Assembly (NCBI GenBank): GCA_026461075.1
Contig: JAPJNH010000051.1
Span: forward strand, 65,816 to 129,815
Length of the DNA stretch: 64,000 nt
Direction of reading: 5' to 3'
Source: Chitinophagales bacterium
GTDB lineage: Bacteria; Bacteroidota; Bacteroidia; Chitinophagales; CAIODY01
Part shown: positions 25,001 through 42,938 of the stretch, in pieces
Position numbering within the stretch: position 1 is the first letter of the stretch
How the letters are laid out: the number at the start of each line of letters is the position of its first letter
The notes under the pieces: generated by a model
Databases searched by the model: none
Told to the model about the DNA's origin: nothing
The model's input: the letters and a program-made list of their open reading frames with translations, nothing else
Program-made: the position numbers and the translations under genes

Positions 25001-25801
25001 AGAGGTAGCACTACCCGCACTACTTACCAAAACAACGTCTACCTTCGTAGTGTCACTATTCGCAAATAAGATATGCATTGGCAAATTTACCGTACCACTA
25101 TTCTCGTTGAAAACAGCATAGGTAGAATCAAAAATCACCGTTGGAGGAATTGGTGTTCCACAAGGGAAGGCTGTATGACTACCTAGCATCGTAAATGTAT
25201 TCATTGGATAAGCCGTCCATTCATACATCCCTTTCATCATCCAATTCTTTTCTCCATGATAAATATTAGGATTACGAACAAGTGTAGTATTGATTGAGAA
25301 GTTATTTGTAAGCGGTGTATTAATTTGCCAAGAAGCGCCAGGGTTATTACATAATTCACCAAAAATATCTAGAGTATCACCGTTCAAGGTGTTAATCAAA
25401 TAAACTGCATCATTACCATTAAAATTTAATGATGCCCAGGTAGTATCTCTTGCCGCTACAACCGCAGGGCTTAGTCCTCCAGTTCCATTGAAAGACACGA
25501 CATAAACATCTCCTGGAAGAAGATTTACGCTTGCTGGCAGACGCATTGTATCTGGATTACCACATCCCGGCGTGGAGGTTCCTCGCATTGAAACACCTAA
25601 AAGATAATTTCCTAGATTTACAGGAATTGTTTTGGGATTATAAATCTCAATTACCTTGTTGGCAGAAAATCCAGGTCCAGGTTCTACATACTCACTAAAA
25701 AACAAATCTGCACAATTTATACCATAGGTCGATTGAGCAAAACTTGCATTTTTACCAACGAATAAAAGACAAAATACAATTAGCGTAACTAGTTTCTTCA
25801 T
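22049..25801 (-). CDS. Giant secreted protein: lamin-tail-like N-domain + about 9 Calx-beta repeats + T9SS type A C-terminal domain
   Basis: 1250 aa with signal peptide. SEYVEPGPG..NKVIEIYNP (LTD-like). Repeated ...DDxIxExTExF... Calx-beta signatures (e.g. IVDDAIVEGTETFTIVLSN). C-terminus KVYPSP...GTYVYRII...IVIER. Confidence 0.85.
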   Translation of the reverse strand: MKKLVTLIVFCLLFVGKNASFAQSTYGINCADLFFSEYVEPGPGFSANKVIEIYNPKTIPVNLGNYLLGVSMRGTSTPGCGNPDTMRLPASVNLLPGDVYVVSFNGTGGLSPAVVAARDTTWASLNFNGNDAVYLINTLNGDTLDIFGELCNNPGASWQINTPLTNNFSINTTLVRNPNIYHGEKNWMMKGMYEWTAYPMNTFTMLGSHTAFPCGTPIPPTVIFDSTYAVFNENSGTVNLPMHILFANSDTTKVDVVLVSSAGSATSGSDYNFVTQTVVIPPYWNGLIDPDTLQIIDDLNMENTEDLYIEFSNPQNAQIQAIAQDTLRVDILDNDFAPTNTIQFLAPVNNSILEQAITLQIPVVLNASAAGPYTADVSLLAANTTAIAGIDYNFTTTTLTFLNAQDTQYVSLDVYDECVCELMESIQLLVSNPSAGVSIGIDSIYSLDILPNDAPPTVSFGASTYSINEGQMNQMIPVNLSAAHCDTMYITVSMAPSSNYPSGSTSWDFTGYANGTTSILVVIPPGQLSASVYVDAYTNSTLNTSGIPQTFTLNATWANCQSGSGVSTASTLVTVNDMNPIPSFSFNMASMSIAEGGGAILVPVDFTNEYGYGGTVSVMSMDITTTLGLDYTFPGAILNFGPTDTQLVLTIPIIQDLIFEGTETFSLMLYGAGANTQINSAASNALIDILDDDVYTPPTVSVNFIQPTYVMYSEMNAALTIPVVASGSTPVFPLTVNVNLDLLNTTATNGVDFIMTNPQILTFASANDTQYVQFSLLDDCIPEFLESVVLTLSNPVNVLIGQDSIYYIDIVQNDPTPSVSFSSNPTQTIGEAGGMLQVPVFLSNVHCDTVTVSYTLAGSAITPADYSISGTLGSITFYPGDTIKYITISVVDDIIVEPTENIVLVLVNPIGATMGAMQTDGVSIIDNDVLAPTVYFGTTANTYIESAGTITVPVMIQNPGATTVSVTATLTSGTALVGTDVTGTVSQTIIFPIGSTTPQNVTFTIVDDAIVEGTETFTIVLSNAVNATIGAANTFTGTITDNDNGGLQTVAQFQSTATTVKEGQTLVLNVPVYVSNPTASPVSVSFTVNAGTCLPTTDYVVITASPLIIPPFNTVNNIQINIVDDNIFETSEQFTISLNSAQNANLGALTTMQVVVLDNDFATGVEAINTNLIKVYPSPLESNGVLSIERAQATPANFQLLNLMGQVVLQNAIISTKEQIQLPDLSAGTYVYRIIENGVLKGNGQIVIER
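22316..25156 (-). repeat. Array of about 9 diverged Calx-beta domain repeats (protein-level tandem repeats; boundaries approximate)
   Basis: An approximately 100-aa unit recurs, ending in D(D/N)D / DD..(E/F)..E motifs. Confidence 0.55.
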
Positions 25802-25858
25802 TGCTTTAAATTATGTCTTAAAAATAAAAAAATAAACCCGCTTTTGATTGATTTTAAG

Positions 25859-25894
25859 TAAAAAAAAGCCCCTCAAAATTGAGGGGCTTTTTTG
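25859..25894. terminator. Strong rho-independent terminator ending the paralogous type-B cargo operon (symmetric A-run/T-run)
   Basis: AAAAAAAA-GCCCCTCAA-aa-TTGAGGGGC-TTTTTT, 8 nt downstream of the stop at 25902. Confidence 0.8.
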
Positions 25895-25901
25895 AGAAGA
25901 A

Positions 25902-28900
25902 TTAACGTACTAAAGTAACGTCACCTTTCAGATAAATTAACTTACCGCCACCGCATTCTGCAATGACATTGTAAATATAAGTTCCTAATTCTTGTTCAAC
26001 ACCGCGGAATTTACCATCCCAACCTTTACTGTTTTTATCGTTGGTTGCGAACATCAATTGTCCCCAACGGTTATAAACCTCTAAACGTACCAAACGATAG
26101 AAATCATCTGGATTAAGAACACGGAATGTACGATCTGCCTCTACATCAGAGTTTGGCGCAAAAGCATTCGGAATTCTTAATGCTTCACACATACGAATAG
26201 TCACATGCATGGTATCCATATCCATACAACCAAACGAAGCATTATAGTAAGTTAATACATAATCTTGATCTACACTTGGAGTCGCATTTGGATCCATTAA
26301 GGTTGGATTGTCCAAAGTGGCTGCAGGTGACCATAAATACGCGTTACCACCAATACTTCCGCTTCCATCCAAATGAGCTGCATTGCCAACGAAGATGGTT
26401 TGATCTGCACCCGCATCAGCAATTGGTAAAGCATGACCCGTGATATGATGAGAAGTACTATCTGTACAACCATTTGCATCTGTTACGAATACGAACACAT
26501 CTGCACCCCCTGTTACAAACAATGAATCATTCGCTGATCCATCGCTCCATAAGTAAGAAACATAATTTGGGCTTACAGCCAAACCAACTGTTTGATCCAA
26601 ACACAAATCATTTGGTCCGATAATAGTTGGCGTAGGCAATGGATTCACGTCCACATTTTGTGTTACTGGCAAACTGCTACATCCGTCTTGCGTCACTACC
26701 AAGGTTGTTGGATAATGTGCTTGTGTTGAAGTGCTATTAAAATAACGTACATTGTGCGGACCTGCTGTAGTCGCTTTATTTGGACTTCCATTATTGAAGG
26801 TCCAGTTGTATGTTACTTGACCACTGCTACTTGGATTCGTCGTTCCTGTATAACTAAAGTTAACCACTTGACCAGAACAAATAGGGTTAGGTGCATAACT
26901 GAAAGTTGCAGTAGGAATTGGGTACACCGTAATTAATACAGAGTCAGTATTAGAAGTACATCCGTTCTCTGTGATTGTCAAATAAGCAACCTCAGTTTTG
27001 ATACCAGAAGTTGTCATGTAGGTTACACTATGCGGTCCTTTAGTGGTTGCAGTCAGAGGACTACCATTAGGGAAGGCGTAACCGAATGTACATGATGCGG
27101 CATTTTGGTAAGTACTACCAGCACTTGTGATTGTTACAGGAACACCAGCACATGTTAAGGCAGGATTCGAGCTAATTTTAGCAACCGGATAAGGGTGAAT
27201 AGTTACGTTTACTGAAGCACTATCGTAACAACCATCTTGATTAACTAACAAGGTAATTTTCTTCACTAATGATATTTTCGAAGGAACTGTATTCCAAGTC
27301 ACATCATAAGTAGGCGTATTATTAATCATGTTAGCAATACCACCATTCCAACCCCAAGTGTATACAGGAATTGTAGGTGTTGGATTTGGAGCAACCCCTG
27401 TATTAATGGTTCCATTGAACGCAACAGTTAATGGAGAGCCAGTACATACCGCATTAGGTGTTGTACTCATGCTTGCCACTGGATTTGGATATATTATAAC
27501 TGAGTCAACAGTTACAATAGAAGGACAAAGGTTCGTTGGTCCAACACTTGTTTGCAACTTGATAATATACTTACCAGGCGCGTTCATTACTAGGCTTAGA
27601 TTCTTAGTAGTACCTACGACATTATTACCCTTATCCATCCACTTGTAATTAAGTCCTGGATAAGTTGCAGAAGTTCCTGTATAGGTTAATTTCAAGCTAT
27701 CGCCCACACAATGCGGACTATTACGAGCAAAATTACTTGTCAATGTTGGAATAACCACAACACTTGCAGAGTCTGGGAAGGAAGTACAACCAAAGTCATT
27801 CACCACCAAATGAGGCGTATAGATACCTCCAGCATTCCAGAATACTTGATATGGACCTTGACCAGAACCACTTAATACTTGCCCGCCATTCCAATTCCAA
27901 TTATAAGTACCTGCTGCAGTACCTGAACCTGTATAGGTTACTGTACTTGGGCTTCCCTGACAAACAGGAGAACTCATAATAAAGTCGGCACTTGGTGTAA
28001 GATTTTGAAGAATGGTAATGGTATCGGTTGCAGAGCATCCTGTACCAGATTGTGTCGCTGTAACAATTACCGAATCAGGACCAAATACTGTTACATTAGG
28101 TGTAGAACAATTACTACATCCTGAAAGTGCTCCACCATTGATCGTCGACCATGTCCAGCCGGTCATCGGAATATTATTTCCAGTTGCCCATAATGGAACA
28201 ACAGCACCTGGACAAACACTGGTATCCTTACGAACTTGTAAATTGATTGTTCCGATCACATTAACAACAACCGTATCAAACAATGGGCAATAAGAACCCA
28301 TTAACTGACATACATAAGTTGTTGTGGTAGCCGGGTTCACATTGATTGTAGCATTGGTATTATTTGGAATTATACTTGGAGGAATTGAACTCCAGAAGAA
28401 ATTGTAATTACCAACATTGATTTGAATTGGACAGCCCGTGAAGCGTGCATTCGGCAACAAATTGCTTGTACCAAAGGTGTTTGGCGTAGCCGCATTTTGC
28501 GTACAGCCGGCAATACCAGCGATATTACCCGCCCATACGACACAGTTCCCAGCTTGCGCTGTTTTTGCAACCACATCACTCGCGGAAGAAATAGCTGACC
28601 CAAAACAAATCTCTACTAACAAATCGCTACTACCATCCCAATCATATGCATTGGTAAAGGCAAATGTATTCCAACCTGCTGTAGTAGTATAATTCGTAGG
28701 ACCGTAAACCGTAGACAATCCACCAATGAAGTTAGTAGGCATTGCTAAGTTTTTATTGATACAACTTACTTTGATGGTCATATTGTAATGCGGCAAATAA
28801 CTATTCTTGGTAGTAATATTAAATGCCATTGAAGAAATCTTGTATGGCGTACCAGCTGCAATACCAAAGGCTGCTTGCAAACTAGCTGCTGTATAACGCA

Positions 28901-31900
28901 TCATCGTTCTTCCATTAGAATAATTCGCGTTGAACGGTGTTATGGTAGTTGTCAGATTATTACCTGCCCCTACAGTTACAGTTGTTGGAGCCGAAGCACA
29001 GTTATTCATTGTACTTAATCCACAAGGTACCGCGTTTACAGGTACTGGACCTGTAGCTGAAGCTGTCAAGCTAACCCCTTGGTTATTTCCACAGAACGTA
29101 GTATCCGCGCCGGCAGAAATTGTATTCTTCTGCATTTGGTAAACAGTGAAATTCTTGATCGTTTGACAACCTCCGTCATCCCCTGTAAGCGTATACGTTG
29201 TAGTTGTTAATGGAGAAACAAAAATGGAATCATTATGAGAAATAAAACCTGGAGGATTTGAGGTCCATGTCCATGTAGTTGTTGCTGTTGCTTTTCCACT
29301 ACATCCTTTAATGAATACATCTGGGCGTTCTGTGATTGTTGCTGGCAAAAATCCATTACCCGTTTGACCATAGTTAGGATCACAACCATTATAACTATCC
29401 GAATAAGCGTAAGCACATAAGTTAGCTGTAGCAGGTAAGCCTGCAGCTGCAGATATTGTAGCATTTGTAGTCTTAGCAACACGGTCATCAGAAGTCCAAC
29501 AGCTACTACCTGCATCATAACAAGTTTGAATCAAAAGGTTTGAAACTCCATCCCAAGCATACGGTGTTTGTAAAACGAAGGTGTTCATACCTGCTGTCGT
29601 ACTGTATGCAGTGGTGGTATAAACTTGCGTTAACGGAGTTGTTAAGTCCATTGCAACACCGCCTGTATAGATATCTGTATAAGGAACACATGCCATTGAA
29701 ATAGTAAACCCTGCAAATTGTCCATTTGCAGAACATGCTGGAATAGTACTTGCCTTATTTACAATATCCCATGCAACTTCAGAAATTGGTCCACCTTGGA
29801 ATCCTAAAGCTTGCAATTCAGAAGCTAAAATCAACATTTGACATTTAGATTCAGTGTAGAAACCGCGGAATGGTGTAGGTAAGTTTGCGGTAGTACCGCT
29901 GTTATTACCTGCTGCGTAAACAGAACCTCCTGCACAACTGATAGGTGATGGTCCACATACGGAAGGCGATGTCATAATGGCAATAGTATCGATCACCAAA
30001 TTACCGAATGGATCACGTAAACAGATGGTATCATTACCCATTACAAACAAAGAAGGATATTGACCTTTTACTAAAATAGGGATATCAATATTCGACCAAC
30101 AGGTAGTATCACCAGGAGGAGGTATGGCCGTAAAGCGAATATTGTGCGGCCCATTGCAATTGTACTTCAACTTGATTGGACCAGGTCCAATAAGATTTCC
30201 ACTCATTACGGTATAGCACGAGTCGAGTGTATAGAAATAATTAAAGTTAGGCTTTACTGTTCCTGTAAAATTCACAATGATCGAATCTGTCGGTCCACAT
30301 ACCGTATCTTGCGATACAAACATTGGTAATGGAGGCATCGGCTGGTTGATATGAATGGTTTTATAAACCGTATCAGATACACAACTAATATTAGATTGAA
30401 CAATTAAGGTAATCGTATAATTACCCATTTGATAATAAATATGCTGCGGATTCTGGGTAACGGTATCTATGTTAGGGTTATTAACCGTAGCATTCGGATC
30501 ACCGAAATTCCACTGCCAATGATTGATGAAAGTTCCCGCTGTTAGAGAGTAGGAAGAGTCGACAAACTGTACAATAGAACCAGCGCAGTAATTGGAAGGA
30601 TAGAAGAAATTAGCTACCGGCTTAGGTTGTGCAGTTAACAATGTATAAATAGTATCAGGACAACCAAATCCTGGGTAAGGGAATACCGCCAACGCATAAG
30701 TAGTAGGTTGAGTTGGCGCTGGATTCAATGTTAAATTCACATTGGTACCTAATATGGTAGTACAAGTTCCATCATACCAAACATAGCTTTGATAACCCGG
30801 AGGGCCATTCAAACCTGCGGTAGAAGATCCTGGACAATATCCTTGTACAATAGCAGAGATGGAACATCCTACGCCTACATCGACGTAACCATAACCCCAG
30901 TGACCACTAAAAGAACAGTCAAAAGTGGTGAATTCAAGCGCAACAGTACGTCCACTTAGACCATTCAATCCAATATTTTGTTGCGACCACGATTTATAGT
31001 GAACGGTAGGATCCAATGTAGAAGTTCCCCAACCTGGCATACTTGAACTTGCTGTATAGGCGAAAGTCGCACATGCAATGGAACTTCCTGGACCTAATAT
31101 ACTATCATAAACTTTTACAGTCACACCAGGCTGATCCGTTGCACCATGACTCGCATCCTGCAATACAGCAGCCCAGTTATAAACGATATTATAGTTGTTA
31201 TTTCCTGGCGGGATTCGAATATAATAAATAACGCGATCAGCTTGTGCTCCTACGTTATCATCCCCTACACGACAAGAGAAATTACCTCCACCAAAAACAG
31301 TAGGGCAAACTACAGGAAACAATCCATAAGGGTCTAAATTAACAGGAGCGGATGTTGGACTAGCTAATGCTGGATTCGGAAATCCAGAAGGCGTAATTTG
31401 AAAACGTGTTCCAGTAGCTGCAACGGTTGGAACAACAGCCGCCGCACCAAACGTTGGGGCTGTACCAGGATAAGTTCCTGTAAAACATTTCCAATTGGTA
31501 AAATTACCATATTCGAAATCAATATTAAGCGGACAACAAACTTGCGGTATAATACGCACGCAATAAGTTGGGCTCGAACAACCTGAAGGTGCCGTCTGAT
31601 AAACACAATAATTACCCGCATCATTGGGGCCAATACCTGTAATAGTATCTGCGTTTTGTGAACTATTCACACCATTTGTACTGTTCGCATTCCAATGAAT
31701 CGTATAGCCTGGTCCCGTTGGAGTTGCAGAGAAAATAAAGTCGCTACTATAACACGGACGCAAAGTATCTTTCACCACACCATTCAATACCATGTGCGGT
31801 ACACCTCCTACCAAGGTCGTAGACAATCCATTGAAAGATATTGTAGTTGGATATGCTGCCGGACCAGCACCTACAGAAATAATCAGTAAGGCGGTATCGC

Positions 31901-32231
31901 ACATAACAGGAACACCATTATCACATACTTTATAGGCTAAAGTATCGACACCGCAAAAGCCGCTATTAGGCGTATAAGAAATCGTTCCGTTGTTAATATT
32001 AACAGCAGTAACTAAACCATGCTTTGGCGTAATGATAACCACTGCATTCAATGTTAATGTTTGTCCGACGTCGGGATCAACGTCGTTTAAAATAACATTG
32101 GTAGTCACACCAGTATTAGCCGCAGTAGTAGCAGCATCATTTGCAGCAACCGGAGGGTTGTTTGCATATGCGCTTTGTAATGCAAAGAATGCCATTACAA
32201 AGAATACGGTTATTTTTACTATTTTTTTCAT
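25902..32231 (-). CDS. Giant T9SS type B cargo (2109 aa): cadherin-like + Ig-like + module A + PKD + 2x module B + PKD-like repeats + type B CTD
   Basis: Signal peptide MKKIVKITVFFVMAFFALQSAYA. NDVDPD cadherin-like domain. WNFGDP PKD domain. C-terminus VYNRWGQLMF...GWDGKFRG...GDVTLVR. Confidence 0.85.
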   Translation of the reverse strand: MKKIVKITVFFVMAFFALQSAYANNPPVAANDAATTAANTGVTTNVILNDVDPDVGQTLTLNAVVIITPKHGLVTAVNINNGTISYTPNSGFCGVDTLAYKVCDNGVPVMCDTALLIISVGAGPAAYPTTISFNGLSTTLVGGVPHMVLNGVVKDTLRPCYSSDFIFSATPTGPGYTIHWNANSTNGVNSSQNADTITGIGPNDAGNYCVYQTAPSGCSSPTYCVRIIPQVCCPLNIDFEYGNFTNWKCFTGTYPGTAPTFGAAAVVPTVAATGTRFQITPSGFPNPALASPTSAPVNLDPYGLFPVVCPTVFGGGNFSCRVGDDNVGAQADRVIYYIRIPPGNNNYNIVYNWAAVLQDASHGATDQPGVTVKVYDSILGPGSSIACATFAYTASSSMPGWGTSTLDPTVHYKSWSQQNIGLNGLSGRTVALEFTTFDCSFSGHWGYGYVDVGVGCSISAIVQGYCPGSSTAGLNGPPGYQSYVWYDGTCTTILGTNVNLTLNPAPTQPTTYALAVFPYPGFGCPDTIYTLLTAQPKPVANFFYPSNYCAGSIVQFVDSSYSLTAGTFINHWQWNFGDPNATVNNPNIDTVTQNPQHIYYQMGNYTITLIVQSNISCVSDTVYKTIHINQPMPPLPMFVSQDTVCGPTDSIIVNFTGTVKPNFNYFYTLDSCYTVMSGNLIGPGPIKLKYNCNGPHNIRFTAIPPPGDTTCWSNIDIPILVKGQYPSLFVMGNDTICLRDPFGNLVIDTIAIMTSPSVCGPSPISCAGGSVYAAGNNSGTTANLPTPFRGFYTESKCQMLILASELQALGFQGGPISEVAWDIVNKASTIPACSANGQFAGFTISMACVPYTDIYTGGVAMDLTTPLTQVYTTTAYSTTAGMNTFVLQTPYAWDGVSNLLIQTCYDAGSSCWTSDDRVAKTTNATISAAAGLPATANLCAYAYSDSYNGCDPNYGQTGNGFLPATITERPDVFIKGCSGKATATTTWTWTSNPPGFISHNDSIFVSPLTTTTYTLTGDDGGCQTIKNFTVYQMQKNTISAGADTTFCGNNQGVSLTASATGPVPVNAVPCGLSTMNNCASAPTTVTVGAGNNLTTTITPFNANYSNGRTMMRYTAASLQAAFGIAAGTPYKISSMAFNITTKNSYLPHYNMTIKVSCINKNLAMPTNFIGGLSTVYGPTNYTTTAGWNTFAFTNAYDWDGSSDLLVEICFGSAISSASDVVAKTAQAGNCVVWAGNIAGIAGCTQNAATPNTFGTSNLLPNARFTGCPIQINVGNYNFFWSSIPPSIIPNNTNATINVNPATTTTYVCQLMGSYCPLFDTVVVNVIGTINLQVRKDTSVCPGAVVPLWATGNNIPMTGWTWSTINGGALSGCSNCSTPNVTVFGPDSVIVTATQSGTGCSATDTITILQNLTPSADFIMSSPVCQGSPSTVTYTGSGTAAGTYNWNWNGGQVLSGSGQGPYQVFWNAGGIYTPHLVVNDFGCTSFPDSASVVVIPTLTSNFARNSPHCVGDSLKLTYTGTSATYPGLNYKWMDKGNNVVGTTKNLSLVMNAPGKYIIKLQTSVGPTNLCPSIVTVDSVIIYPNPVASMSTTPNAVCTGSPLTVAFNGTINTGVAPNPTPTIPVYTWGWNGGIANMINNTPTYDVTWNTVPSKISLVKKITLLVNQDGCYDSASVNVTIHPYPVAKISSNPALTCAGVPVTITSAGSTYQNAASCTFGYAFPNGSPLTATTKGPHSVTYMTTSGIKTEVAYLTITENGCTSNTDSVLITVYPIPTATFSYAPNPICSGQVVNFSYTGTTNPSSSGQVTYNWTFNNGSPNKATTAGPHNVRYFNSTSTQAHYPTTLVVTQDGCSSLPVTQNVDVNPLPTPTIIGPNDLCLDQTVGLAVSPNYVSYLWSDGSANDSLFVTGGADVFVFVTDANGCTDSTSHHITGHALPIADAGADQTIFVGNAAHLDGSGSIGGNAYLWSPAATLDNPTLMDPNATPSVDQDYVLTYYNASFGCMDMDTMHVTIRMCEALRIPNAFAPNSDVEADRTFRVLNPDDFYRLVRLEVYNRWGQLMFATNDKNSKGWDGKFRGVEQELGTYIYNVIAECGGGKLIYLKGDVTLVR

Positions 32232-32258
32232 ATGTATTTATTTCTCAGAATAATTTAA

Positions 32259-35200
32259 TTAACGTAACAAAGTAACACTACCCTCTTTTCTAACTATCTG
32301 TCCACCTTCACATTCAGCCTCTAGGTAGAAAGTATAGGCTCCTACTTCTTGATCAACTCCGTTAAACTTACCATCCCAACCTTGATCCATTTTGTTTTTA
32401 GAGCTATACACTTTTTGTCCCCAACGGTTAAACACTTCAAATCTCTTAAGACTAGTCAATTGCATTGCATTCGCGATAAAGAAGTGATCGTTCTTACCAT
32501 CACCATTTGGAGAGAATGCTTTCGGGATAAACACATTCGAACAGTTCGTAACGATAACAAGCATCGTGTCATATCCTATACAACCGTTCTGATCTGTTGC
32601 TTCCACAATATAGAATGTCGAAACAGCTGGTGTTGCTTGCGTATTAAGAATTGTTGCATTTGCTACAGTGGCAGCAGGTGTCCATGCGTAAATATAATTT
32701 GGCGTAGTAGCTCCACCGATATTGGCTGTATTACCAAGCACAATCATCGTATCAGGACCAGCATCTGGAGCTGGAGGAACGAGAACTGTAACAATAGCAG
32801 TACCTACTCCAGTACAACCGTTTGCAAGAGTACCGATAACAGAATATGAAGTCGTACTTGCTGGCCATACTTTGATAGCTGGTAAATTCGAATTCACATT
32901 ATTAATCCAATTATAACTATCCGCACCACTTGCCCATAGATATGCTGGACGACCCGGACAAATACTTGTATCACTATGAATAATCACAGTAGGAACAGGC
33001 AATATTGTAATCGGACTTGTAACAGGCGTAGATACGCAACCATTCTGAGATACAGTCAAGGTAACATTATACGTTCCAGGATTATTCCAGATAACACCTA
33101 TCGGACCTGCACCTGAACCATACAATTGTGATGTCATATTGCTGAATGTCCATGCATGGTTAGCTCCTGGCACTACCCCTCCTCCGATATGTACGAAGCG
33201 AGCTGTGTCGAAAGCACATGTTGGAGACGTTACGGTAAAGTTCGCTGTCGGTGTTGGCACTACTTGAATCGTTTGTGTATTCGTAGCAGAAGTACATCCA
33301 TTCTCCGTAACTACTAATGAAACCGAAGCATTGAATATTGAATTAGAGTTGTTAACCCATGTTACACCATGAGGTCCAATACCTGACAATTGAACAGGAT
33401 TAGCATTACCTGTTGTATTCCAAACAAAACCAGCTGTGCTTGTAGCATTACCTGTATAGGTAACCGCAACTTGGTTTCCAGAACATATACTTGAGGCCAA
33501 ACTGAAATTATTCGTTGGAGTTAAGGTAACATTCACAGGAACGACTGTTGGTGCAGAAGTACAACCATTAGAGGTAACCGTTAAGCTTACATTCTTTATA
33601 CCTGCTGTTGACCAGTTCACAGTATATGGTCCAGCTCCTGGTCCACCACTCGGTACACCGCCATCCCAAGCCCAGATATAACTTGCGCCAGCACCCATAT
33701 TACCTGTATAGGTAATTGGCGTTGCCTGACCTGTACATGATTTTACAGGAGCAACAAAAGAGGAAGTAGGTGTTAAGTTTACAACTAAAGGAACGGTTGT
33801 TGTACTTGTACAGTTTCCATTGGTTACCGTTAGGGTCAAGTTCTTTGTACCTGCTGAACTCCACATCGCTTGATAAGGACCAGCGCCGCTTCCTGAGGCA
33901 ACGACAGCACCTTGTAAATTCCAATTGTAGTTATAGGCTGCATTTGCAGTTCCTGTGTAGGAAATTATTGCATTTGAGCCGGTACAAACTGGGTTAGGAA
34001 TAATAGAAAATCCAGAAGTCGGTGTTTGATTAACAATCACAGGAATTGTGATGGAATCCAAACATGATCCAGAATTGACAATTAATTTCACATTTTTAGT
34101 ACCCGCTGTAGCCCACGTGATAGTGTAAGGTCCAAAACTGGATCCACTTACTACTGTACCACCATTCCAATTCCAAGTGGCCGTTGAACCTACAGGATTA
34201 ACTCCTGTAAAGGTAACCGTTGCATTTGCACCAGAACATACTGGATTAGGATTCACAGTGAAGTTAGCTGTAGGAACAGGAGTCACAGATATCACAATGT
34301 TATCCGTAACATTACAACCAGAGTACCCACTTGCTGAAACTTGATAGGTAGTGGTTATTGAGGGAGAAACTGCAGGATTCATCTGAAACGAAGTAAATCC
34401 AGCAGGAGTTGAAGTCCAGTTATAATTGAAAGGACCAGTACCAGTTGTAGTAGGGTTTAACGTATAAATTGAACCTTTACAAATAGTGGCATTATTACCA
34501 GCATTAATAGAAGTTGTATTATCAATGTAAATAGTTTTAGTCGTGGTTGTTTGACAACCATTACCATCATCAACCGTTACAGAATAAGTAGTATTAACAG
34601 TAGGTGAAGCCACTGGATTATTCACAGAGGCAGAGGATAAAGTTGCAGTCGGCGTCCAAACATAAGTTGCTGTATTCAAGTTTGAAATACAAGTAATCAA
34701 CGTAACTGAAGGACGATTGAACGAAGTAGTGAAGATAGTCCCTGTAGTAAGGTTACAACCACTTGAACCAACACCTGATTGAAGTGCATAGACACAAGAG
34801 CTGAATGCAGTAGCTGTTTGTGCAACAACATCATCCATATTGGCAGAAGAATTGTCGAAGCAGAATTCTAGTACTAAATTACTTGTTCCATCCCAGTTAT
34901 AAGGTGTCTGGAAATTAAAGGTATTGGTACCATTTACTGTATTGTAAATGGCGTTAGTATACACCAAGCTTAAACCTCCGATAAAGGATGCAGCACTATA
35001 TTGAGAGGATGCAGTGCAACCCATAGAAATCTTAAAATTACGGATAGGGTTTGTGCTACTCTTGCTCGTTACATTGAAACTTATTCCAGACAATTGACCA
35101 GCACTAAAGCCTGCATTTACGAGCTCTGATGCACGAATAATCATCTGCATTCTGCCATCAGAATAAGATTGAGAGAACGGACCAGGATAAGTTGAAATAT

Positions 35201-36893
35201 TTAATCCACCTGCACCAATTATACTATTATTGGGTACGCCATTACAAGCTACATTGGTTGGTCCGCATGTGGTTGGAATAACAGAAACCGATAATTGGGT
35301 ATTTGCATTCGGACAAATCGTGTCATCCGTTACATTAATATGCGCATCAGGAGCCACACCAACAATATTTACCACCACGCTATCTGTAAAGCTACAGCCT
35401 AGGACAGGATTGGTAATGGTATAATAGTAAGTAGTGGTCGCTGTTGGGGTTACTATAGCAAACTGTTGCGTAGTATCTACAATGCCGTTTGCAGGCCAAT
35501 TCAATCCATTATTGGTAGTCCATGCTATAGAATAGTTTGGATTTGGCGGCGAAACAGGATTCATGGTAGTACTCGTATTCAAACATATACTTTGATCAGG
35601 ACCAGCATTCGGATATACCGGAGGTTGAGCCACGTTCAAAATGGTGAATAAGGCCGTATCGGATACACAGGATATACTAGATGTTACGATCAACTGTACT
35701 TGGAAGAAGCCTGTGTCAGAGAAGATATGAACTGGATTTTGTTGTGTACTATAATTATTTGCACCAGTGTTTGGGTCACCGAAATCCCAATGCCAAGAGT
35801 TAATATAAGCAAATGGGAAGTTAGTATAAGAAGAGTCTGTAAATTGTACCGGACTATTCGCACAAATTTGCTGGTTAGTTGTGAAAAAAGCTGTTGGCAA
35901 TGGCGCTACTTTTAAGGTATCGACCAATGTATCATTACAGGAAGCACCACCTGGAGGTGTTACTACGCAAGCATAAGGTGTATTAGCTGCCGGAGCAGTA
36001 ATTACTACTGAATCGAAGTTCCCAATATTGGTCCAACCCGGTAATTGATACCAAGAGTAATTTGAAAAGCCTGGAGGGCCATATAAGGTAGCAGAACTTT
36101 GGCCAGGACAATAACCTGTGCTGATACGGAAAGGATTACAACCACCAGGAATATCTACATAAGAATATCCATAGTGACCTCCGAATGAACAGTCTCCTGT
36201 TGCGAATTCCAAGATAACTAGGTGACCATTTAAAGCGGCTAAGTTTACTGAAACAGGTATCCAATTAGAACAATATACCTGATTATTACTTGGTGAAACG
36301 AACCAGAACGGCGGCATGTTAGTACTGCTCGATGGCGAAGGGATATTGTAAGAAGGACAAGGTACTACAACTGGAGTTGTATAAGGTGCTGTAATTGGAC
36401 CCGCATCGTATACGGTAAATACAACACGCGGTTGATCTGTTGCTGCGTGACCACCAGAGTTTAGAACGGCTGCATAACGATAAATCAAGGTAGAGTTATT
36501 CGTACTGACAGGAAACTGAATACGAACTTTTTCAGATTCAGAACCTGTGTTTGAATTCCCTAATTTGAGTGAATGTAGGTTAACAATCGGCGGTTGAACA
36601 GGGCATACACAAGGGAATCCACAAGAAGCGTCATTACCCCAAGTAGCATCTGTTACTTCGATACGGCCAGGAATTTGAAAATTAACACCTTGAAATGAAC
36701 ATGCGTTGATTGGGCAACAACCTAAACCTGTACAGCCGTTATTGATAAAAGACTGCCACTGAGACATGTCGCCTAATTCAAACCCGATATTTGGCGGACA
36801 CACTTGTGAGAAGGCTTTTGGAGCTTCCAAAAGCATGAGCAATACTAAAATTCTTAAGCTCAGTTTAAAAATACTTTTCATTTGCAAGTTCAT
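32259..36893 (-). CDS. Giant T9SS type B cargo (1544 aa): module A + PKD + module B + 5 tandem PKD-like repeats + type B CTD
   Basis: Signal peptide (an alternative start at M5, 36881, is possible). WDFGDP PKD domain. C-terminus FSPNGDGKNDHF...VFNRWGQKVY...GWDGKFNG...GSVTLLR. Confidence 0.85.
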   Translation of the reverse strand: MNLQMKSIFKLSLRILVLLMLLEAPKAFSQVCPPNIGFELGDMSQWQSFINNGCTGLGCCPINACSFQGVNFQIPGRIEVTDATWGNDASCGFPCVCPVQPPIVNLHSLKLGNSNTGSESEKVRIQFPVSTNNSTLIYRYAAVLNSGGHAATDQPRVVFTVYDAGPITAPYTTPVVVPCPSYNIPSPSSSTNMPPFWFVSPSNNQVYCSNWIPVSVNLAALNGHLVILEFATGDCSFGGHYGYSYVDIPGGCNPFRISTGYCPGQSSATLYGPPGFSNYSWYQLPGWTNIGNFDSVVITAPAANTPYACVVTPPGGASCNDTLVDTLKVAPLPTAFFTTNQQICANSPVQFTDSSYTNFPFAYINSWHWDFGDPNTGANNYSTQQNPVHIFSDTGFFQVQLIVTSSISCVSDTALFTILNVAQPPVYPNAGPDQSICLNTSTTMNPVSPPNPNYSIAWTTNNGLNWPANGIVDTTQQFAIVTPTATTTYYYTITNPVLGCSFTDSVVVNIVGVAPDAHINVTDDTICPNANTQLSVSVIPTTCGPTNVACNGVPNNSIIGAGGLNISTYPGPFSQSYSDGRMQMIIRASELVNAGFSAGQLSGISFNVTSKSSTNPIRNFKISMGCTASSQYSAASFIGGLSLVYTNAIYNTVNGTNTFNFQTPYNWDGTSNLVLEFCFDNSSANMDDVVAQTATAFSSCVYALQSGVGSSGCNLTTGTIFTTSFNRPSVTLITCISNLNTATYVWTPTATLSSASVNNPVASPTVNTTYSVTVDDGNGCQTTTTKTIYIDNTTSINAGNNATICKGSIYTLNPTTTGTGPFNYNWTSTPAGFTSFQMNPAVSPSITTTYQVSASGYSGCNVTDNIVISVTPVPTANFTVNPNPVCSGANATVTFTGVNPVGSTATWNWNGGTVVSGSSFGPYTITWATAGTKNVKLIVNSGSCLDSITIPVIVNQTPTSGFSIIPNPVCTGSNAIISYTGTANAAYNYNWNLQGAVVASGSGAGPYQAMWSSAGTKNLTLTVTNGNCTSTTTVPLVVNLTPTSSFVAPVKSCTGQATPITYTGNMGAGASYIWAWDGGVPSGGPGAGPYTVNWSTAGIKNVSLTVTSNGCTSAPTVVPVNVTLTPTNNFSLASSICSGNQVAVTYTGNATSTAGFVWNTTGNANPVQLSGIGPHGVTWVNNSNSIFNASVSLVVTENGCTSATNTQTIQVVPTPTANFTVTSPTCAFDTARFVHIGGGVVPGANHAWTFSNMTSQLYGSGAGPIGVIWNNPGTYNVTLTVSQNGCVSTPVTSPITILPVPTVIIHSDTSICPGRPAYLWASGADSYNWINNVNSNLPAIKVWPASTTSYSVIGTLANGCTGVGTAIVTVLVPPAPDAGPDTMIVLGNTANIGGATTPNYIYAWTPAATVANATILNTQATPAVSTFYIVEATDQNGCIGYDTMLVIVTNCSNVFIPKAFSPNGDGKNDHFFIANAMQLTSLKRFEVFNRWGQKVYSSKNKMDQGWDGKFNGVDQEVGAYTFYLEAECEGGQIVRKEGSVTLLR
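32997..34283 (-). repeat. Five tandem ~85-aa non-canonical PKD-like repeats (protein-level, diverged)
   Basis: Unit P.PT..F.....VC.G.....YTG....Y.WNW.GG...GSG.GPY...W...G.K...L.V...GC.S......V (aa 871-1299). Confidence 0.6.
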
Positions 36894-36942
36894 TAATTTA
36901 GGGTAGTTTCTGTTTTCAATTTCAAGGATGCAACTCGGCTAA

Positions 36943-37320
36943 TTAGCGCTTATAGTTTACCAAAACCCAATTGTTATCTGCCATTACTTTTTCCAATTCA
37001 GGACTAGTTAATAAATCAACGGTATCATCAAAAACAAGAACTACGCGACGAGAGTTAGGAACCTCTGTAGCTAATGGCATCATAGATTGAAAGCCTTTAA
37101 TTTTCTGAAAATACTCATTTACTTTGGTTAGGTTCAACATGTCAGTTGCGGTCAACGTTTCAAACACAACAATACGACGATGCGCAACAGGATTATAGGA
37201 TTGGTCAATCACCTGAATAGCAACACGCTTAGTAGTTGCAGCAGCTTTTTGTGTCGTTTGTGCCATGCTCAAATTTGCAAGACCTAACAAAACCATAACG
37301 GAGAAAAGGATACGTTTCAT
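36943..37320 (-). CDS. Small secreted hypothetical protein nested between the paralogous giants
   Basis: 125 aa. Signal peptide MKRILFSVMVLLGLANLSMAQ. Gaps of only 27 and 49 nt to the flanking genes. No recognisable family. Confidence 0.6.
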   Translation of the reverse strand: MKRILFSVMVLLGLANLSMAQTTQKAAATTKRVAIQVIDQSYNPVAHRRIVVFETLTATDMLNLTKVNEYFQKIKGFQSMMPLATEVPNSRRVVLVFDDTVDLLTSPELEKVMADNNWVLVNYKR

Positions 37321-37347
37321 ATTTGTGAGTTTGAATTTTTGTATTAA

Positions 37348-39897
37348 TTATTTAATTAGAGTAACATTACCTGTTTTAGTTTTTACTTGCCCACCTTTAT
37401 CTACGACTTGTGCTTTATAGATATAGACGCCAATATCTTGTATTTGCCCTTTGTAAGAGCCATCCCAACCTTTCGCACGTATATCTGTTGTAGCGTAAAC
37501 TAACTCTCCCCAACGGTTGTAGACTTCAAAATAATCAAGCGAAACAAAATTTCTATTGAGAAGGAAGAAGTAGTCATTTTTGCCATCACCGTTAGGTGAG
37601 AAGGCACTTGGAATCACTAATTCCGGACATTCAATTGGATTGACAAAAACAGAATCTTTAGAACGACAGCCAATTGCATTAGCCGTATTAACATATACCA
37701 TCACCGGCTGTGTCACTGCTGCAACGGCAGTGGAGCATGTAACGCAAGCAGCAATCGATCCTGCAGACGGATCCATCGTCCACCAAAACTGAGTGATGTC
37801 AGATGCAAGGGAATTGAATGCTATTATTTCTGCCTGGTTCATACACGGTTGAATTGTGTCAGGCAAATCTAATGAATAAGGCTCCCCTACTCTTACTACA
37901 ATATTTTCAGTTAATACGCACCCACTATAGGTAATTCCTGTAACGGTATACGTTGTTGTTTGCATGGCAGAGCACACAACTTGAGGTCCTGTTGAGGAGC
38001 TTAAATCATTAGACGGATTCCAGCTAAAGCTAAATCCTCCGCTCGGTGTTGGGCCATCCATAGATGCCATTAAGGTGCAAGAAGATCCTTTACAAATCAC
38101 TGTATCTAAGCTTGCGAAAAGATGGTTTCGGTCATCCACATTAACAAGGAAAGTCTGAGAGGACGAGCAACCGTTGTCATTAATTGTGAGACTATATGCA
38201 GTTGTCACGATTGGATTTACCGTAGGATTTGGAACGGATGCAGAGCTGATATGCGTGTTCGGTGTCCAAGTATAATTCGCAGATGCGGGAATTACATCTA
38301 GGCCAAGATTGGTAATACTTAGGAAGTCGTTTTCTCCGGCACAAATGGTATCATCCCCATTAATTTGGAAGTTAGGACGTACTCCTAAAACAGTAACTTT
38401 TACGGAGTCAGTTAAATTACATCCAGAAGGATCTGTTAAGATAATATGGTAAACCGTGGTAACTGATGGAGATGCTTTCGGATTTGGAATAGAGTCGTTG
38501 CTTAAGCCTGCAGACGGCACCCAATGATATTGATAAGGGCCAAAAGCGGCATTAGCTGTTGCCTGTAATTGTGTGCTATCGTATTTACAAATACTAACAT
38601 TTAGTCCTGCATCCAAATTAATGGGAGGTGGAGGTACAATCGTAATCGATAAACTTGTAGTATCCGAAACACAGGAGATATCGGACTCAACGATAAGTGC
38701 AACAGTATAGGTACCTGGGTTATAAAAGACGTGGGTAGGATTTTGAGAAGTCGCAATATTATTAGCACCAGAGGAAGGATCTCCAAAATCCCAATGCCAT
38801 TGGACGATAATAGAGCCAGGGATATGCGTTTGACTAGAATCGTAGAAATTGATTAATCCACCTGCACAGGCGGTGGTTTGGAATCCAAACATGGCAGTAG
38901 GACGAGGCTGTACATGAATGGTATCATACAAAGTATCAGCGCAAACAACCAATCCTGGAGGGATTACAACAAGGGAATAGATAATATTAGAATCTGGTGA
39001 TAAAATCAACAATGAATCTGCAGCGCCGCTAGCAATGTATGGCGCACCAGTCCCTGCGGTGTCCCAGATATAAGTATTGAAACCCGGAGGACCATAAAGG
39101 GTTGCAGAGGTTGACCCAGGGCAATAGCCGGTTACGACAGAGAATGCGCCGCAGTTTAAATCAACATAGGCATAGCCAAAATGCCCACCAAGTGAACAAT
39201 CCGCTGTAGCAAATTCAATCGTCACTAAATGTCCATTCAAAGTACCTAAGTTAACTGACACTGGAATCCAACGCGAACAAAAAACACTACTATTCGTTGT
39301 AGAGACGAACCAGCCTTGCGTTAAACTTGCAGAAGAGGAAGGCGTCTGAAATAGAATAGAAGAACAAGTTACTTTTACCGGAGTGGCATAAGGATTATTC
39401 ATTGGGCCATTATCCCAAACATTAAAAACCAAGAAGGGCTGATTGGTTATAGCATGCTGTGGATTCTCCATAACTGCCGCATAGCGATAAATTAAGGATG
39501 CATTAGAGCTGTTTACAGCAAAGGTGGTACGTACCATTTCAGCCTCACCGCCCGTATTATCGTTCCCGAGGCGTAATGACTTCGTTCCGTAACCAATATA
39601 AGGACAAACAACTGGTAAAAGACTATATGGATCAAGTGTTCCATTAAATGGAGGCGTATACGTCAAGCCAGCCCCATTGGGGGTAACGGTATGTCTGCCA
39701 GCAACCTGACCAGGCACTGTAATACTCGGAGTACCAGAGTTATTAGTTCCTGTGAAACATTGCCAACCTGTGGTATTACCTTGCTCGAAACCAATATTTG
39801 GTAGACATTGCGCGAACAAACTGCTGTGAATACCAAGACTGAAAAGCCCTAGTAAAAGCAGTTTGACGCTAAAAAGCTTTAAAAATTGTTGTTTCAT
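37348..39897 (-). CDS. T9SS type B cargo (849 aa from the preferred start): module A + PKD + Ig-like repeats + type B CTD
   Basis: Start placed at MKQQFLKLFSVKLLLLGLFSLGIHSSLFAQ (39897; the track gives 39969). WDFGDP PKD domain. C-terminus FSPNGDGKNDYF...VYNRWGELVY...GWDGSYKG...GNVTLIK. Confidence 0.85.
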   Translation of the reverse strand: MKQQFLKLFSVKLLLLGLFSLGIHSSLFAQCLPNIGFEQGNTTGWQCFTGTNNSGTPSITVPGQVAGRHTVTPNGAGLTYTPPFNGTLDPYSLLPVVCPYIGYGTKSLRLGNDNTGGEAEMVRTTFAVNSSNASLIYRYAAVMENPQHAITNQPFLVFNVWDNGPMNNPYATPVKVTCSSILFQTPSSSASLTQGWFVSTTNSSVFCSRWIPVSVNLGTLNGHLVTIEFATADCSLGGHFGYAYVDLNCGAFSVVTGYCPGSTSATLYGPPGFNTYIWDTAGTGAPYIASGAADSLLILSPDSNIIYSLVVIPPGLVVCADTLYDTIHVQPRPTAMFGFQTTACAGGLINFYDSSQTHIPGSIIVQWHWDFGDPSSGANNIATSQNPTHVFYNPGTYTVALIVESDISCVSDTTSLSITIVPPPPINLDAGLNVSICKYDSTQLQATANAAFGPYQYHWVPSAGLSNDSIPNPKASPSVTTVYHIILTDPSGCNLTDSVKVTVLGVRPNFQINGDDTICAGENDFLSITNLGLDVIPASANYTWTPNTHISSASVPNPTVNPIVTTAYSLTINDNGCSSSQTFLVNVDDRNHLFASLDTVICKGSSCTLMASMDGPTPSGGFSFSWNPSNDLSSSTGPQVVCSAMQTTTYTVTGITYSGCVLTENIVVRVGEPYSLDLPDTIQPCMNQAEIIAFNSLASDITQFWWTMDPSAGSIAACVTCSTAVAAVTQPVMVYVNTANAIGCRSKDSVFVNPIECPELVIPSAFSPNGDGKNDYFFLLNRNFVSLDYFEVYNRWGELVYATTDIRAKGWDGSYKGQIQDIGVYIYKAQVVDKGGQVKTKTGNVTLIK

Positions 39898-40027
39898 TAA
39901 GGAGTAGTTTTCAGTTTTAAATAAAACCACACTCGCGTTAAGGGGCGCAAGTATAGTTTTCCTTCGCAATATAGTGAAAACTTCCTATAAAAGCAACATT
40001 TGGCTTAAAATCAGATAGTACAAAAGA

Positions 40028-41002
40028 CTACCCTACTTCTTGCAATTTCATACAATTAAAATGGCCTTTCGGACAAGATTTGAAGCCAATTTTACTACAA
40101 GGTCTGCAAGACAAACCTAATACCTCAAAATTAACTGCATTCGCAGGAGCGGTATCTGGATAAAAAGGATACATGCCGAAGCCTGGAACGGTATTCCCCC
40201 AAAACACATCAATGTCTTTATTATACGCGGCAGCGATGTGCATCATACCTGTATCGTTGGTAAAAACTTTACTCGCAACTTTAATCAATTCTGCTGACTG
40301 ATTAATGGTCAATTTTCCTGTCCAGTTGATTACTTGCTCAGGAAAGGCTTGCTGTATTTCCTGTCCCATTTCCATATCCTCTTTCCCTCCAATAACATGA
40401 ATTGGCAAATCTAATTTTGCAGCTATTTGCTTCCATTTATCCATCGGTAAACGCTTGGTCGCAAATTGCCCCCCAATTGAAAAGACAACAAATGGGTTAT
40501 CATTATAATGTTTTAAAAACTCGTGCTGTAGCCAGTTTTGAGCTTCTAGATCCGTAAAATGATCCAAACCTAATCCATCATAGGCAAGTCCTAATTCCTG
40601 ACCAGTTTCGAGATAACGATCGACAATATGCGGGACCTTAATTTGCTTTTTCCACTTCACCATTCTCCATTTATCCCAATGCATTTTCTTAACCGAAGAA
40701 GATGGAACTCCAAGGTATACTTTCAAAAAAGCACTTCTCAAATTATTATGCAAATCAATTACATAATCGTAACGCTCCGACCGCAACTTAGAAGCTAATG
40801 CCAATAATCCGTTTTCTAATGGTATGATTTTATCTATGTATGGATTATGCTGTAAAACACTGCTTAGCTTTTTCTTAACCGTCAAATGAACTTCGGCATT
40901 CGGATATTTAGCTTTCAAACAGCGATAAACAGGGCTCGTGAGCACAAGATCTCCAATTGAGCTAAAACGAATTACTAAAATTTTCTTCGGAGGAGGAAGC
41001 AT
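40028..41002 (-). CDS. Glycosyltransferase family 9 (LPS heptosyltransferase-like)
   Basis: 324 aa. KILVIRFSSIGDLVLTSPVYRCLK N-terminus and NDTGMMHIAAA motif typical of GT9. Confidence 0.85.
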   Translation of the reverse strand: MLPPPKKILVIRFSSIGDLVLTSPVYRCLKAKYPNAEVHLTVKKKLSSVLQHNPYIDKIIPLENGLLALASKLRSERYDYVIDLHNNLRSAFLKVYLGVPSSSVKKMHWDKWRMVKWKKQIKVPHIVDRYLETGQELGLAYDGLGLDHFTDLEAQNWLQHEFLKHYNDNPFVVFSIGGQFATKRLPMDKWKQIAAKLDLPIHVIGGKEDMEMGQEIQQAFPEQVINWTGKLTINQSAELIKVASKVFTNDTGMMHIAAAYNKDIDVFWGNTVPGFGMYPFYPDTAPANAVNFEVLGLSCRPCSKIGFKSCPKGHFNCMKLQEVG

Positions 41003-41011
41003 AGCTAAAAT

Positions 41012-41046
41012 AGAAAAGCCGACCTTATTGATCGGCTTTTCAAAAA
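41012..41046 (-). terminator. Rho-independent terminator after the disordered-lipoprotein gene
   Basis: Stem AAAAGCCGA / TCGGCTTTT with a 9-nt loop. The minus strand continues TTTTCTATTTT. Confidence 0.6.
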
Positions 41047-41057
41047 AGTGTTAATCG

Positions 41058-41876
41058 TTATTTCTTTTGAATAATCTCATTGGCCGTTTTAGGCTTTTGA
41101 TCAACTTTTGTTGGAACTGTACCAATCTGACCGTTTGCAGAAGCATTGTTAGCATTACCTGTATTTGCAGCTTTTGCTGCTGGTTGACTATGGGCAGGAG
41201 TGTTTGGTAAAGACCTTTTCGGTCCGCGTGCAGGACCTGTTTGACGACCATCCGCGTATCCAGAAGCTGGAACGATATAGTCTTTACTGCCATCCAATTC
41301 AGACGCTTTTTTATAATGTCTTTCGTACTCGCTGTTAGAACCGTTATAATCATCTACATAATAAGCGTCATTATAGCCTTCTGCACGACGAATGATAGCA
41401 CGCTCTTCTTGATCATTCACACCATCGTAAATGGATCCAGAGCGACGACGAGTTGTTGTAGTTGCTGTAGCTGCTGTGGCGGTATTAGCTGAAGTTTTTG
41501 CCTTTGAAGACGTTGTTACTGTGTTCTTTGCAGGAGTAGCTGCAGGTTTTGGTTCTGCTTTAACAACTTTCTTTTCAGCTTTAGCAGGAGCAGGAGTAGT
41601 TTCGGCTGGTTTGGCAGACTCTTCAGCTATTTTTGTATCCGAAGAGGAAAGGGCGTCAGTGCCAGCATCCGTAGTGGTTGTCGTTGTCGAATCAGAAAGC
41701 AATTCTGCATCTGAAAAATCAGAAGAAGAGCCATCATCCGCGAACTCACCCTCCCCAACACTTGTTGAGTCGGCCACTACCTCTTCTTGTTTACCAAACT
41801 TCTTTTTAATGAATTTACAGCTCACGTTAGAGGCGGCAATACTAGCAATTAGAAGCAGGACGAATATTTTTTTCAT
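41058..41876 (-). CDS. Predicted lipoprotein, largely low-complexity/disordered, charge-segregated
   Basis: Start placed at MKKIFVLLLIASIAASNVSC (41876), a lipobox-like signal with Cys. An acidic S/D/T-rich segment is followed by a basic K/A/P/T-rich segment, then a Tyr-rich ~70-aa block. Confidence 0.65.
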   Translation of the reverse strand: MKKIFVLLLIASIAASNVSCKFIKKKFGKQEEVVADSTSVGEGEFADDGSSSDFSDAELLSDSTTTTTTDAGTDALSSSDTKIAEESAKPAETTPAPAKAEKKVVKAEPKPAATPAKNTVTTSSKAKTSANTATAATATTTTRRRSGSIYDGVNDQEERAIIRRAEGYNDAYYVDDYNGSNSEYERHYKKASELDGSKDYIVPASGYADGRQTGPARGPKRSLPNTPAHSQPAAKAANTGNANNASANGQIGTVPTKVDQKPKTANEIIQKK

Positions 41877-41894
41877 AAGACTGAAAGGGTTAAT

Positions 41895-41902: not shown

Positions 41903-41917
41903 ATATAATTCTTTAGA

Positions 41918-42928: not shown

Positions 42929-42938
42929 TAACCTTTGT

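Follow-up and report, generated by a model that had tools for sequence, protein, structure and literature searches.

The 64-kb stretch of DNA from an uncultured Chitinophagales bacterium that was analysed here (the window) carries on its minus strand a compact cluster of four genes, called g1, g2, g3 and g4 in the order of transcription. Three of them encode large multidomain proteins that end in a C-terminal domain (CTD) of type B, belonging to the type IX secretion system, or T9SS, and the other, g2, encodes a small protein. A first-pass annotation of the stretch had proposed an operon for three paralogous type-B cargo proteins of increasing size; its observations were confirmed almost point by point, and its interpretation is supported. 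The listing of open reading frames (ORFs) bears out both the positions of the four genes and their spacing, with gaps of 27 nt (g1-g2), 49 nt (g2-g3) and 27 nt (g3-g4). The preferred ATG start of g1 is also correct, because the orthologues of g1 are 843-852 aa long and the alternative TTG start lies within a conserved, non-coding, promoter-like box. The boundary that had been drawn at g1 does leave out a constant upstream neighbour, a gene for a glycosyltransferase of family GT9, which is considered below.

The domain order of the three large proteins was established with iterated hidden Markov models (HMMs). In g1, a signal peptide is followed by a domain called module A, a PKD domain, three Ig-like repeats and the CTD. 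The order in g3 is signal peptide, module A, PKD, Ig, a second domain called module B, two Ig, five PKD-like repeats, two more Ig and the CTD, and that in g4 is signal peptide, a cadherin-like/Big_9 domain, a linker, module A, two PKD, module B, Ig, module B, Ig repeats, five PKD-like repeats, Ig and the CTD. The profile matches agree with the shared core that had been described (module A, PKD, Ig/PKD-like repeats, type-B CTD). Module B is present in zero, one and two copies in g1, g3 and g4, and g1 indeed has module A only, while g4 adds both the N-terminal cadherin-like unit and the two module B copies. The module B and the five PKD-like repeats that were said to be added in g3 are both there, but five such repeats were found in g4 too.

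All three CTDs score above the cut-offs of PF13585 (CHU_C; 54.4, 62.9 and 39.1 bits for g1, g3 and g4, cut-off 27) and of TIGR04131 (48.2, 47.5 and 38.7 bits, cut-off 35), and the PKD domains of the three proteins likewise lie above curated cut-offs. The CTD of g4 is the most divergent, having APNSDVEAD instead of SPNGDGKND. Direct reading of the sequences points to Sec signal peptides, with a basic N-terminus and a hydrophobic core, in all four products, the apparent junctions being A-Q or S-Q in g1, g2 and g3 and YA-N in g4. The three large products are probably secreted by a T9SS through their type-B CTDs. When these proteins were aligned, their paralogy was evident: g1 and g3 are 42% identical over 584 aa (E = 2e-116) and g1 and g4 are 37% identical over 417 aa (E = 2e-70), with g3 and g4 at 32-34% over about 1000 aa. 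At the DNA level, similarity is low, with only short stretches at 70-80% identity, and the three genes are old, diverged paralogues, as had been suggested from inspection by eye. Recent gene conversion among them could be ruled out, since the longest exact match is only 14-16 nt.

Module A is about 290 aa long (residues 31-321 of g1) and has no Pfam or NCBIfam match at E <= 0.01, so that by sequence it falls in none of the MAM or carbohydrate-binding module (CBM) families. A word-indexed protein search returned only 23 relatives, and a pattern scan of representative genomes confirmed at least 592 occurrences in Chitinophagales, Sphingobacteriales and Flavobacteriales; module A is therefore a widespread domain for which no family model exists. 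Its invariant residues include E9, W16, D60, H119, D204, C205, H210, Y213 and Y215. The AF2 model (predicted local distance difference test, pLDDT, 86) is all-beta, and Foldseek comparison with the PDB gave 3fhq (3e-7), 2c9a (2e-5) and 2xom (6e-5) with probabilities of 0.98-1.0. The matched structures are binding modules, namely the MAM-Ig unit of RPTP-mu, the non-catalytic C-terminal sandwiches of GH85 enzymes, and CBM61, 16, 28, 22 and 11, and module A is thus modelled as a lectin-like (MAM/CBM-like) jelly-roll with a small Ig-like subdomain. Like MAM domains and CBMs, it has a jelly-roll, with an Ig-like domain after it in the manner of the MAM-Ig unit of RPTP-mu, and its N-terminal motif C-x-x-x-FE-x-G-x-x-x-W is one that we take to be MAM-like; unlike them, it lies outside every Pfam and NCBIfam family, and its TM-scores are 0.2-0.36. 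In g1, g3 and most homologues, module A forms the mature N-terminus, which is the end farthest from the CTD anchor. Module B spans about 185 aa and contains conserved cysteines. It is found less widely than module A and nearly always alongside it, and the word-indexed search found a single fragment.

The product of g2 consists of a signal peptide and an alpha/beta domain of about 100 aa, with no Pfam or NCBIfam match. A search of 1.84 billion proteins gave just 7 representatives of its family. The AF2 model has a pLDDT of 82 as a whole, with values over 90 in the core. A member of the g2 family was found in every copy of the cluster long enough to show one, and in no other context examined. 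The protein may be a cluster-specific periplasmic or secreted accessory, perhaps a chaperone or assembly factor.

The same cluster was recovered in several diverged lineages by two routes, one in which window-derived HMMs were run over 80 module-A loci and the other a set of separate look-ups seeded by g2 homologues (these loci carry L and P numbers below). The nearest sequences, 65-98% identical, come from metagenomes of Chitinophagales and Bacteroidota, and the distant copies show 30-48% protein identity. Gene order is kept in L003, L005, L006, L081, L082, L161-L164 and the P0049 places, so the arrangement of three large genes and one small gene does recur in other genomes, in diverged metagenome lineages; L003, L004, L005 and L007 hold partial versions of the cluster. 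In the window, L081/L082 and L163/L164, gene 1 encodes 849-852 aa, g2 is single, gene 3 encodes 1544 aa and gene 4 encodes 2108-2109 aa. There are two copies of g2 in L006 (genes 1, 3 and 4 of 630, 1597 and at least 1253 aa, the last cut by the contig end), in the P0049 places (623, 1584 and 1733 aa) and in L161/L162 (1254, 1573 and 1912 aa). Size thus rises along the cluster in every complete case (849 < 1544 < 2109, 623 < 1584 < 1733 and 1254 < 1573 < 1912), and in L006 it rises from 630 to 1597 before the third large gene is cut off, while the g3 orthologues of four lineages stay within 1544-1597 aa. The proposal that the proteins grew by insertion holds in that the size gradient recurs, but it does not describe a simple stepwise series, because the first gene of one lineage (L161/L162, domain order A-B-B) already has two B modules.

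A phylogeny of module A, which had been suggested as a check, was built and is poorly resolved at depth, with bootstrap values of 2-50. It cannot serve as proof of three clean orthologous clades, and g1 of the window is in fact nearer to g3 of the window (42% identity) than to gene 1 of L006 (37%). Orthology was therefore judged by full-length best matches and gene position. The best match of each L006 gene is its positional counterpart in the window, at 37-47% identity, which argues that the arrangement predates the split of those lineages. In one partial copy, L004, an apparent gap of 337 nt after the A-B-B gene (positions 3493-3829) encodes a type-B CTD (ending in GNVTLLR and a stop) in a different frame. 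The gap is probably not a true intergenic region but the product of a frameshift or of faulty assembly of that metagenome-assembled genome.

The signals for transcription were searched for in the gaps and at both ends of the cluster. No TAnnTTTG box, the -7 motif of Bacteroidota, lies inside any of the three gaps, and a relaxed -33/-7 motif was not found within 400 nt 5' of g2, g3 or g4, motif scans being weak evidence. The gaps have folding energies of 0 to -2 kcal/mol, in agreement with the earlier statement that they contain neither a -7 box nor a hairpin, and terminators looked for by folding were absent from them. The gaps of unrelated same-strand neighbours (19003-19056, 21976-22048 and 41003-41057), which serve as an internal control, have strong hairpins. 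The terminator after g4 is strong, as had been claimed, but it is not clearly the strongest in the window: it ranks among the best two or three, with a comparable hairpin at about 19011. Its A-run and U-run give it a bidirectional look. The cluster accordingly has the usual marks of an operon, namely a common strand, short gaps, and a terminator at the end with none inside, and co-transcription of g1-g2-g3-g4 is predicted.

Upstream of g1, about 100 nt are nearly invariant between the window and relatives with an 81%-identical GT9 (identified by tblastn), while the sequence right after the GT9 stop has diverged. This region includes a box, TAT(T)ATTGC, that is kept 5' of g1 in the window, L002, L005, L006, L007 and L161. 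The gap between GT9 and g1 also encodes a leader hairpin that is kept in L081, L082 and L163, where a G-to-A change leaves the pairing intact; it may be either a regulatory or attenuator element of the 5' untranslated region or the terminator of GT9. When 25700-41200 was compared with Rfam at E <= 1, the terminator hairpin produced sub-threshold matches and nothing else was returned; no family matched the leader. Since both the conserved box and the hairpin with its U-tract lie between GT9 and g1, the start of the transcription unit is placed downstream of GT9. A sigma-70 scan was discarded, with a promoter count below the shuffle mean and a model not relevant to Bacteroidota, as was an invertible promoter or other phase variation, with no convincing inverted repeats flanking the promoter region and no DNA tandem repeats in the genes.

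Table 1. Coordinates of the cluster, its parts and the flanking features (positions in the window unless a locus is named; PKD, Ig and CTD as in the text).
Feature	Coordinates	Strand	Description
g1	37348..39897	-	849 aa from ATG at 39897
g1, longer ORF	37348-39969	-	873 aa from TTG
g1, module A	38935-39807	-	
g1, PKD	38638-38907	-	
g1, three Ig-like repeats	37888-38631	-	
g1, type-B CTD	37351-37614	-	
g2	36943..37320	-	125 aa
g3	32259..36893	-	1544 aa
g3, module A	35919-36803	-	
g3, PKD	35637-35903	-	
g3, module B	34689-35258	-	
g3, five PKD-like repeats	33003-34280	-	
g3, type-B CTD	32262-32528	-	
g4	25902..32231	-	2109 aa
g4, cadherin-like/Big_9	31917-32165	-	
g4, module A	30654-31541	-	
g4, two PKD	30069-30626	-	
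g4, module B (two copies)	29373-29948 and 28431-29012	-	
g4, five PKD-like repeats	26646-27998	-	
g4, type-B CTD	25905-26177	-	
Intrinsic terminator	25859..25894	-	after g4, closes the unit; -21.5 kcal/mol, z = -6.2
Promoter-like region	39966..39996	-	conserved 5' of g1; TTG, 20 nt, -7-like box TATATTGC (39973-39966)
Leader hairpin	39923..39960	-	about 15 bp and U-rich tract; RNAfold of GT9-g1 gap
GT9 (heptosyltransferase-family) glycosyltransferase gene	40028..41002	-	324 aa; PF01075, E = 1e-26
Conserved g1-g2 intergenic element of relatives	L003:2728-2845, L004:3715-3829, L005:6553-6656, L006:8979-9096, L161:9892-10000		

The absence of a PorP/SprF gene from the unit, which had been noted before, was borne out by profile scans, with no match in 25902-39897 and the nearest one, the sole one in the window, at 41918-42928. 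That gene belongs to a neighbouring canonical type-B operon (41058-46241, minus strand), in which an 1100-aa cargo with cadherin-like/Big_9, PKD and CHU_C domains (42939-46241) is followed after 10 nt by the PorP/SprF gene (336 aa), after another 20 nt by a gene for a 279-aa protein without a family match, and then by a terminator at 41013-41041; the close relatives L081 and L163 have cargo, PorP and 279-aa protein in the same order. This canonical pair, like Fjoh_3952/3951 of Flavobacterium johnsoniae, has a CTD of the same family as those of the cluster and is made of similar domains (cadherin-like/Big_9, PKD), and differs in that the shuttle gene lies 10 nt after its cargo whereas g1, g3 and g4 have no such gene. 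The CTDs of g1, g3 and g4 are 44-45% identical to one another and only 31-32% identical to that of the neighbouring cargo, and their closer mutual identity fits one shared shuttle for the three. The PorP/SprF protein encoded at 41918-42928 is unlikely to be that shuttle, given that it has its own cargo partner, that the CTDs differ to this extent, and that it is absent beside the distant copies of the cluster, where the 10 kb upstream contain no PorP gene.

Of the 12 type-B substrates in F. johnsoniae, 3 are orphans (Fjoh_1123 and Fjoh_1720, plus Fjoh_4934) that share one orphan PorP/SprF-like shuttle, Fjoh_1677 (PMC12618676). PorP/SprF genes lie downstream of about 7 of 57 other module-A genes, and those of the remaining downstream neighbours that were checked with Pfam are all housekeeping genes. 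Given this usual state of module-A genes and the F. johnsoniae precedent, the lack of a shuttle gene is expected and is no anomaly. The cluster resembles the F. johnsoniae orphans (PMC12618676) in having type-B cargo without an adjacent porP/sprF, and several cargo proteins with related CTDs. The orphans differ in being tied experimentally to a distal shuttle, and the cluster differs from them in its three tightly grouped paralogues with a common module A and a dedicated small gene. A likeness of another kind is to sprCDBF, an operon found in F. johnsoniae and F. columnare (Rhodes et al. 2011, cited in PMC5879114), in which a giant repetitive type-B CTD adhesin is joined with needed accessory genes. 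That operon has one adhesin with its own shuttle, SprF, whereas the cluster encodes three adhesin-like paralogues without a shuttle. Neither the SprB-repeat family, which is absent among the Pfam matches of the cluster, nor SprC or SprD was detected in the cluster proteins, and with no sprF-like gene in the unit the cluster does not qualify as encoding an SprB-type gliding adhesin.

We consider it fairly probable that g1-g4 are one transcription unit for three T9SS-secreted surface proteins, built as lectin-like heads on graded stalks, together with a cluster-specific accessory, and that the shuttle is encoded elsewhere. Transcription would start in the gap between GT9 and g1 (about 39966-39996) and run to the terminator (25859-25894). 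The three large products would be exported by Sec, secreted by the T9SS through their type-B CTDs, and held on the surface by a PorP/SprF-type shuttle or anchor. Each would consist of a head, module A, and a stalk of PKD/Ig-like repeats with module B inserts, with protein lengths rising through about 850, 1540 and 2110 residues, so that related lectin-like heads would be displayed at three distances from the outer membrane, where they could bind ligands as adhesins or ligand-capture proteins. The g2 product would act as the periplasmic or secreted accessory. Several points weigh against this picture. The candidate promoter of g1 departs from the strict TAnnTTTG consensus, and if the leader hairpin is the terminator of GT9, little room is left for a promoter of g1. 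Relatives have a promoter-like element between gene 1 and g2 that suggests internal starts in some lineages. There is no T9SS core gene in the window, where the presence of proteins with type-A and type-B CTDs and of one PorP/SprF gene nevertheless implies a T9SS. As to the individual parts, the TM-scores of module A against known folds are low, and no particular ligand is indicated; module B has no Pfam match and a single, insignificant PDB profile match (S-layer protein 9f8e, E = 0.025); and the PDB fold search with g2 gave no match at E < 0.01, just a generic alpha/beta resemblance.

The element in the relatives bears on a reading in which the genes are neighbours but do not form a single operon, with g2-g3-g4, or each large gene, having its own promoter within the 3' end of the coding sequence before it and being expressed separately, for example depending on conditions. 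In L003-L006 and L161, the g1-g2 gap is 104-118 nt long and contains a conserved element, TGAGTGAGTAGAAT...TGTAATTG, about 19 nt and TTTTG, which resembles a Bacteroidota -33/-7 promoter; in finer form, with an extra upstream box, it reads TGAGTGAGTAGAAT, 6-8 nt, TAAAAATGTAATTG, about 19 nt and (A/T)TTTTG. The unit may therefore be split at this point in those relatives, and co-transcription may vary by lineage. About 35 nt just 5' of the g3 ATG are also conserved between the window and L081, the remainder of that gap having diverged. The relatives' element was not found in the window lineage, where the gaps are compacted to 25-27 nt and free of terminators, and this together with the empty strict and relaxed motif scans makes separate promoters rather unlikely in the window. 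A different kind of doubt concerns function, and would make the proteins surface enzymes or polymer-processing proteins in which module A or B is an unrecognised catalytic domain. The invariant polar residues of module A (E9, D60, H119, D204, C205, H210, Y213 and Y215) could build a metal site or an active site, glycoside hydrolase chains supply its best fold matches, and module B has no informative match. We think this improbable, given that the match to the GH85 chains falls on non-catalytic beta-sandwiches and the other matches are CBMs and MAM, that neither Pfam nor NCBIfam finds a catalytic family, and that a head on a long stalk of Ig repeats is the typical layout of an adhesin.

A further possibility is that GT9 belongs to the system, either glycosylating the three proteins or building a glycolipid for anchoring. 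The Aah and TibC heptosyltransferases are known to glycosylate autotransporter adhesins, and GT9 scores below every NCBIfam equivalog cut-off, including those for lipopolysaccharide (LPS) heptosyltransferases. It lies directly upstream of the cluster wherever a locus extends to that point (L002, L003, L005-L007, L081, L082, L161-L164 and two P0049 places), even though at least four different sets of genes are found beyond it: type-B cargo, PorP and the 279-aa protein in the window, and elsewhere Mur ligase, RNase T and GT2, or NeuB and DUF4476, or ETF and a nuclease. These independent rearrangements are few, and the linkage could be merely inherited. The nearest solved structures are LPS-type, with RfaF (1psw) and 3tov, and only RfaF and other LPS GT9 enzymes, no TibC-type ones, are among the PDB sequence matches at E <= 1e-3. 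Homologues of equal identity (42-50%) occur in 52 metagenomic loci without module-A genes, and the cluster-linked GT9 genes form no supported clade in a tree. On these grounds, GT9 is not supported as a cluster-specific enzyme or an adhesin heptosyltransferase of the Aah/TibC kind; it looks ordinary and widespread, and with a promoter-like box and a U-tract hairpin between it and g1, it is probably a separate transcription unit. Any part for it in the system is thus unlikely. The weights given to these alternatives need not add up to a whole, as an involvement of GT9 can co-occur with the other readings. Speculative, and distinctly doubtful, is the idea that the cluster is a self-contained surface-display module, in which g2, as a dedicated periplasmic factor, hands the three orphan cargo proteins to a distal shuttle or organises them on the surface, the rising stalks build a layered coat with the same head at three set heights, and GT9 could supply a matching glycan. 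As a separate observation, four unrelated metagenomic loci (L091, L092, L124 and L150) have a GT9 homologue followed within about 130-230 nt by a gene of the PorP/SprF family, which may point to a GT9-T9SS neighbourhood that recurs apart from the module-A cluster.

The logic of such a system, with type-B cargo, orphan substrates and adhesin operons such as sprCDBF, is already known (PMC5879114), while this conserved cluster, the g2 family and the two unmodelled domains are new. The cluster provides a natural test set of three diverged paralogous orphan cargo proteins with related CTDs, kept together at 30-48% identity and joined by a tiny accessory, g2, that was seen in no other context examined. 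Cargo with type-B CTDs represents a less understood branch of type IX secretion, and to our knowledge experiments on how orphan cargo finds its shuttle date only from 2025 and concern a single species. Modules A and B could become family models that improve the annotation of "hypothetical" T9SS cargo. Bacteroidota encode many large repetitive surface proteins, and in other respects this locus is an ordinary case of them.

The window as a whole is rich in T9SS cargo, with seven such proteins in 64 kb. Another orphan type-B CTD protein, of 1141 aa with DUF7948, SBBP beta-propeller repeat, PKD and CHU_C matches, is encoded at 13124-16549 on the minus strand; it has no adjacent PorP/SprF gene and lies between genes for a TonB-dependent receptor and an HPPD-like dioxygenase. 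Two genes for cargo with type-A CTDs (Por_Secre_tail) are found at 22049-25801 and 55347-58145, both on the minus strand, the former directly downstream of the cluster and encoding seven Calx-beta domains and a lamin-tail domain, the latter encoding PKD_6/Ig_7. Genes for polysaccharide synthesis occupy both ends of the window (1-6618 and 50649-55192) and include a sugar transferase, GT4/GT1 enzymes, a Wzy_C-like ligase and a hexapeptide acyltransferase, together with an asparagine synthase-like gene, which places the cargo-rich region among loci for the cell envelope. Finally, three gaps between unrelated same-strand genes (13070-13123, 19003-19056 and 20293-20346) are each exactly 54 nt long, with no common sequence and with a terminator hairpin in the middle one only, and this identity in length is probably a coincidence.

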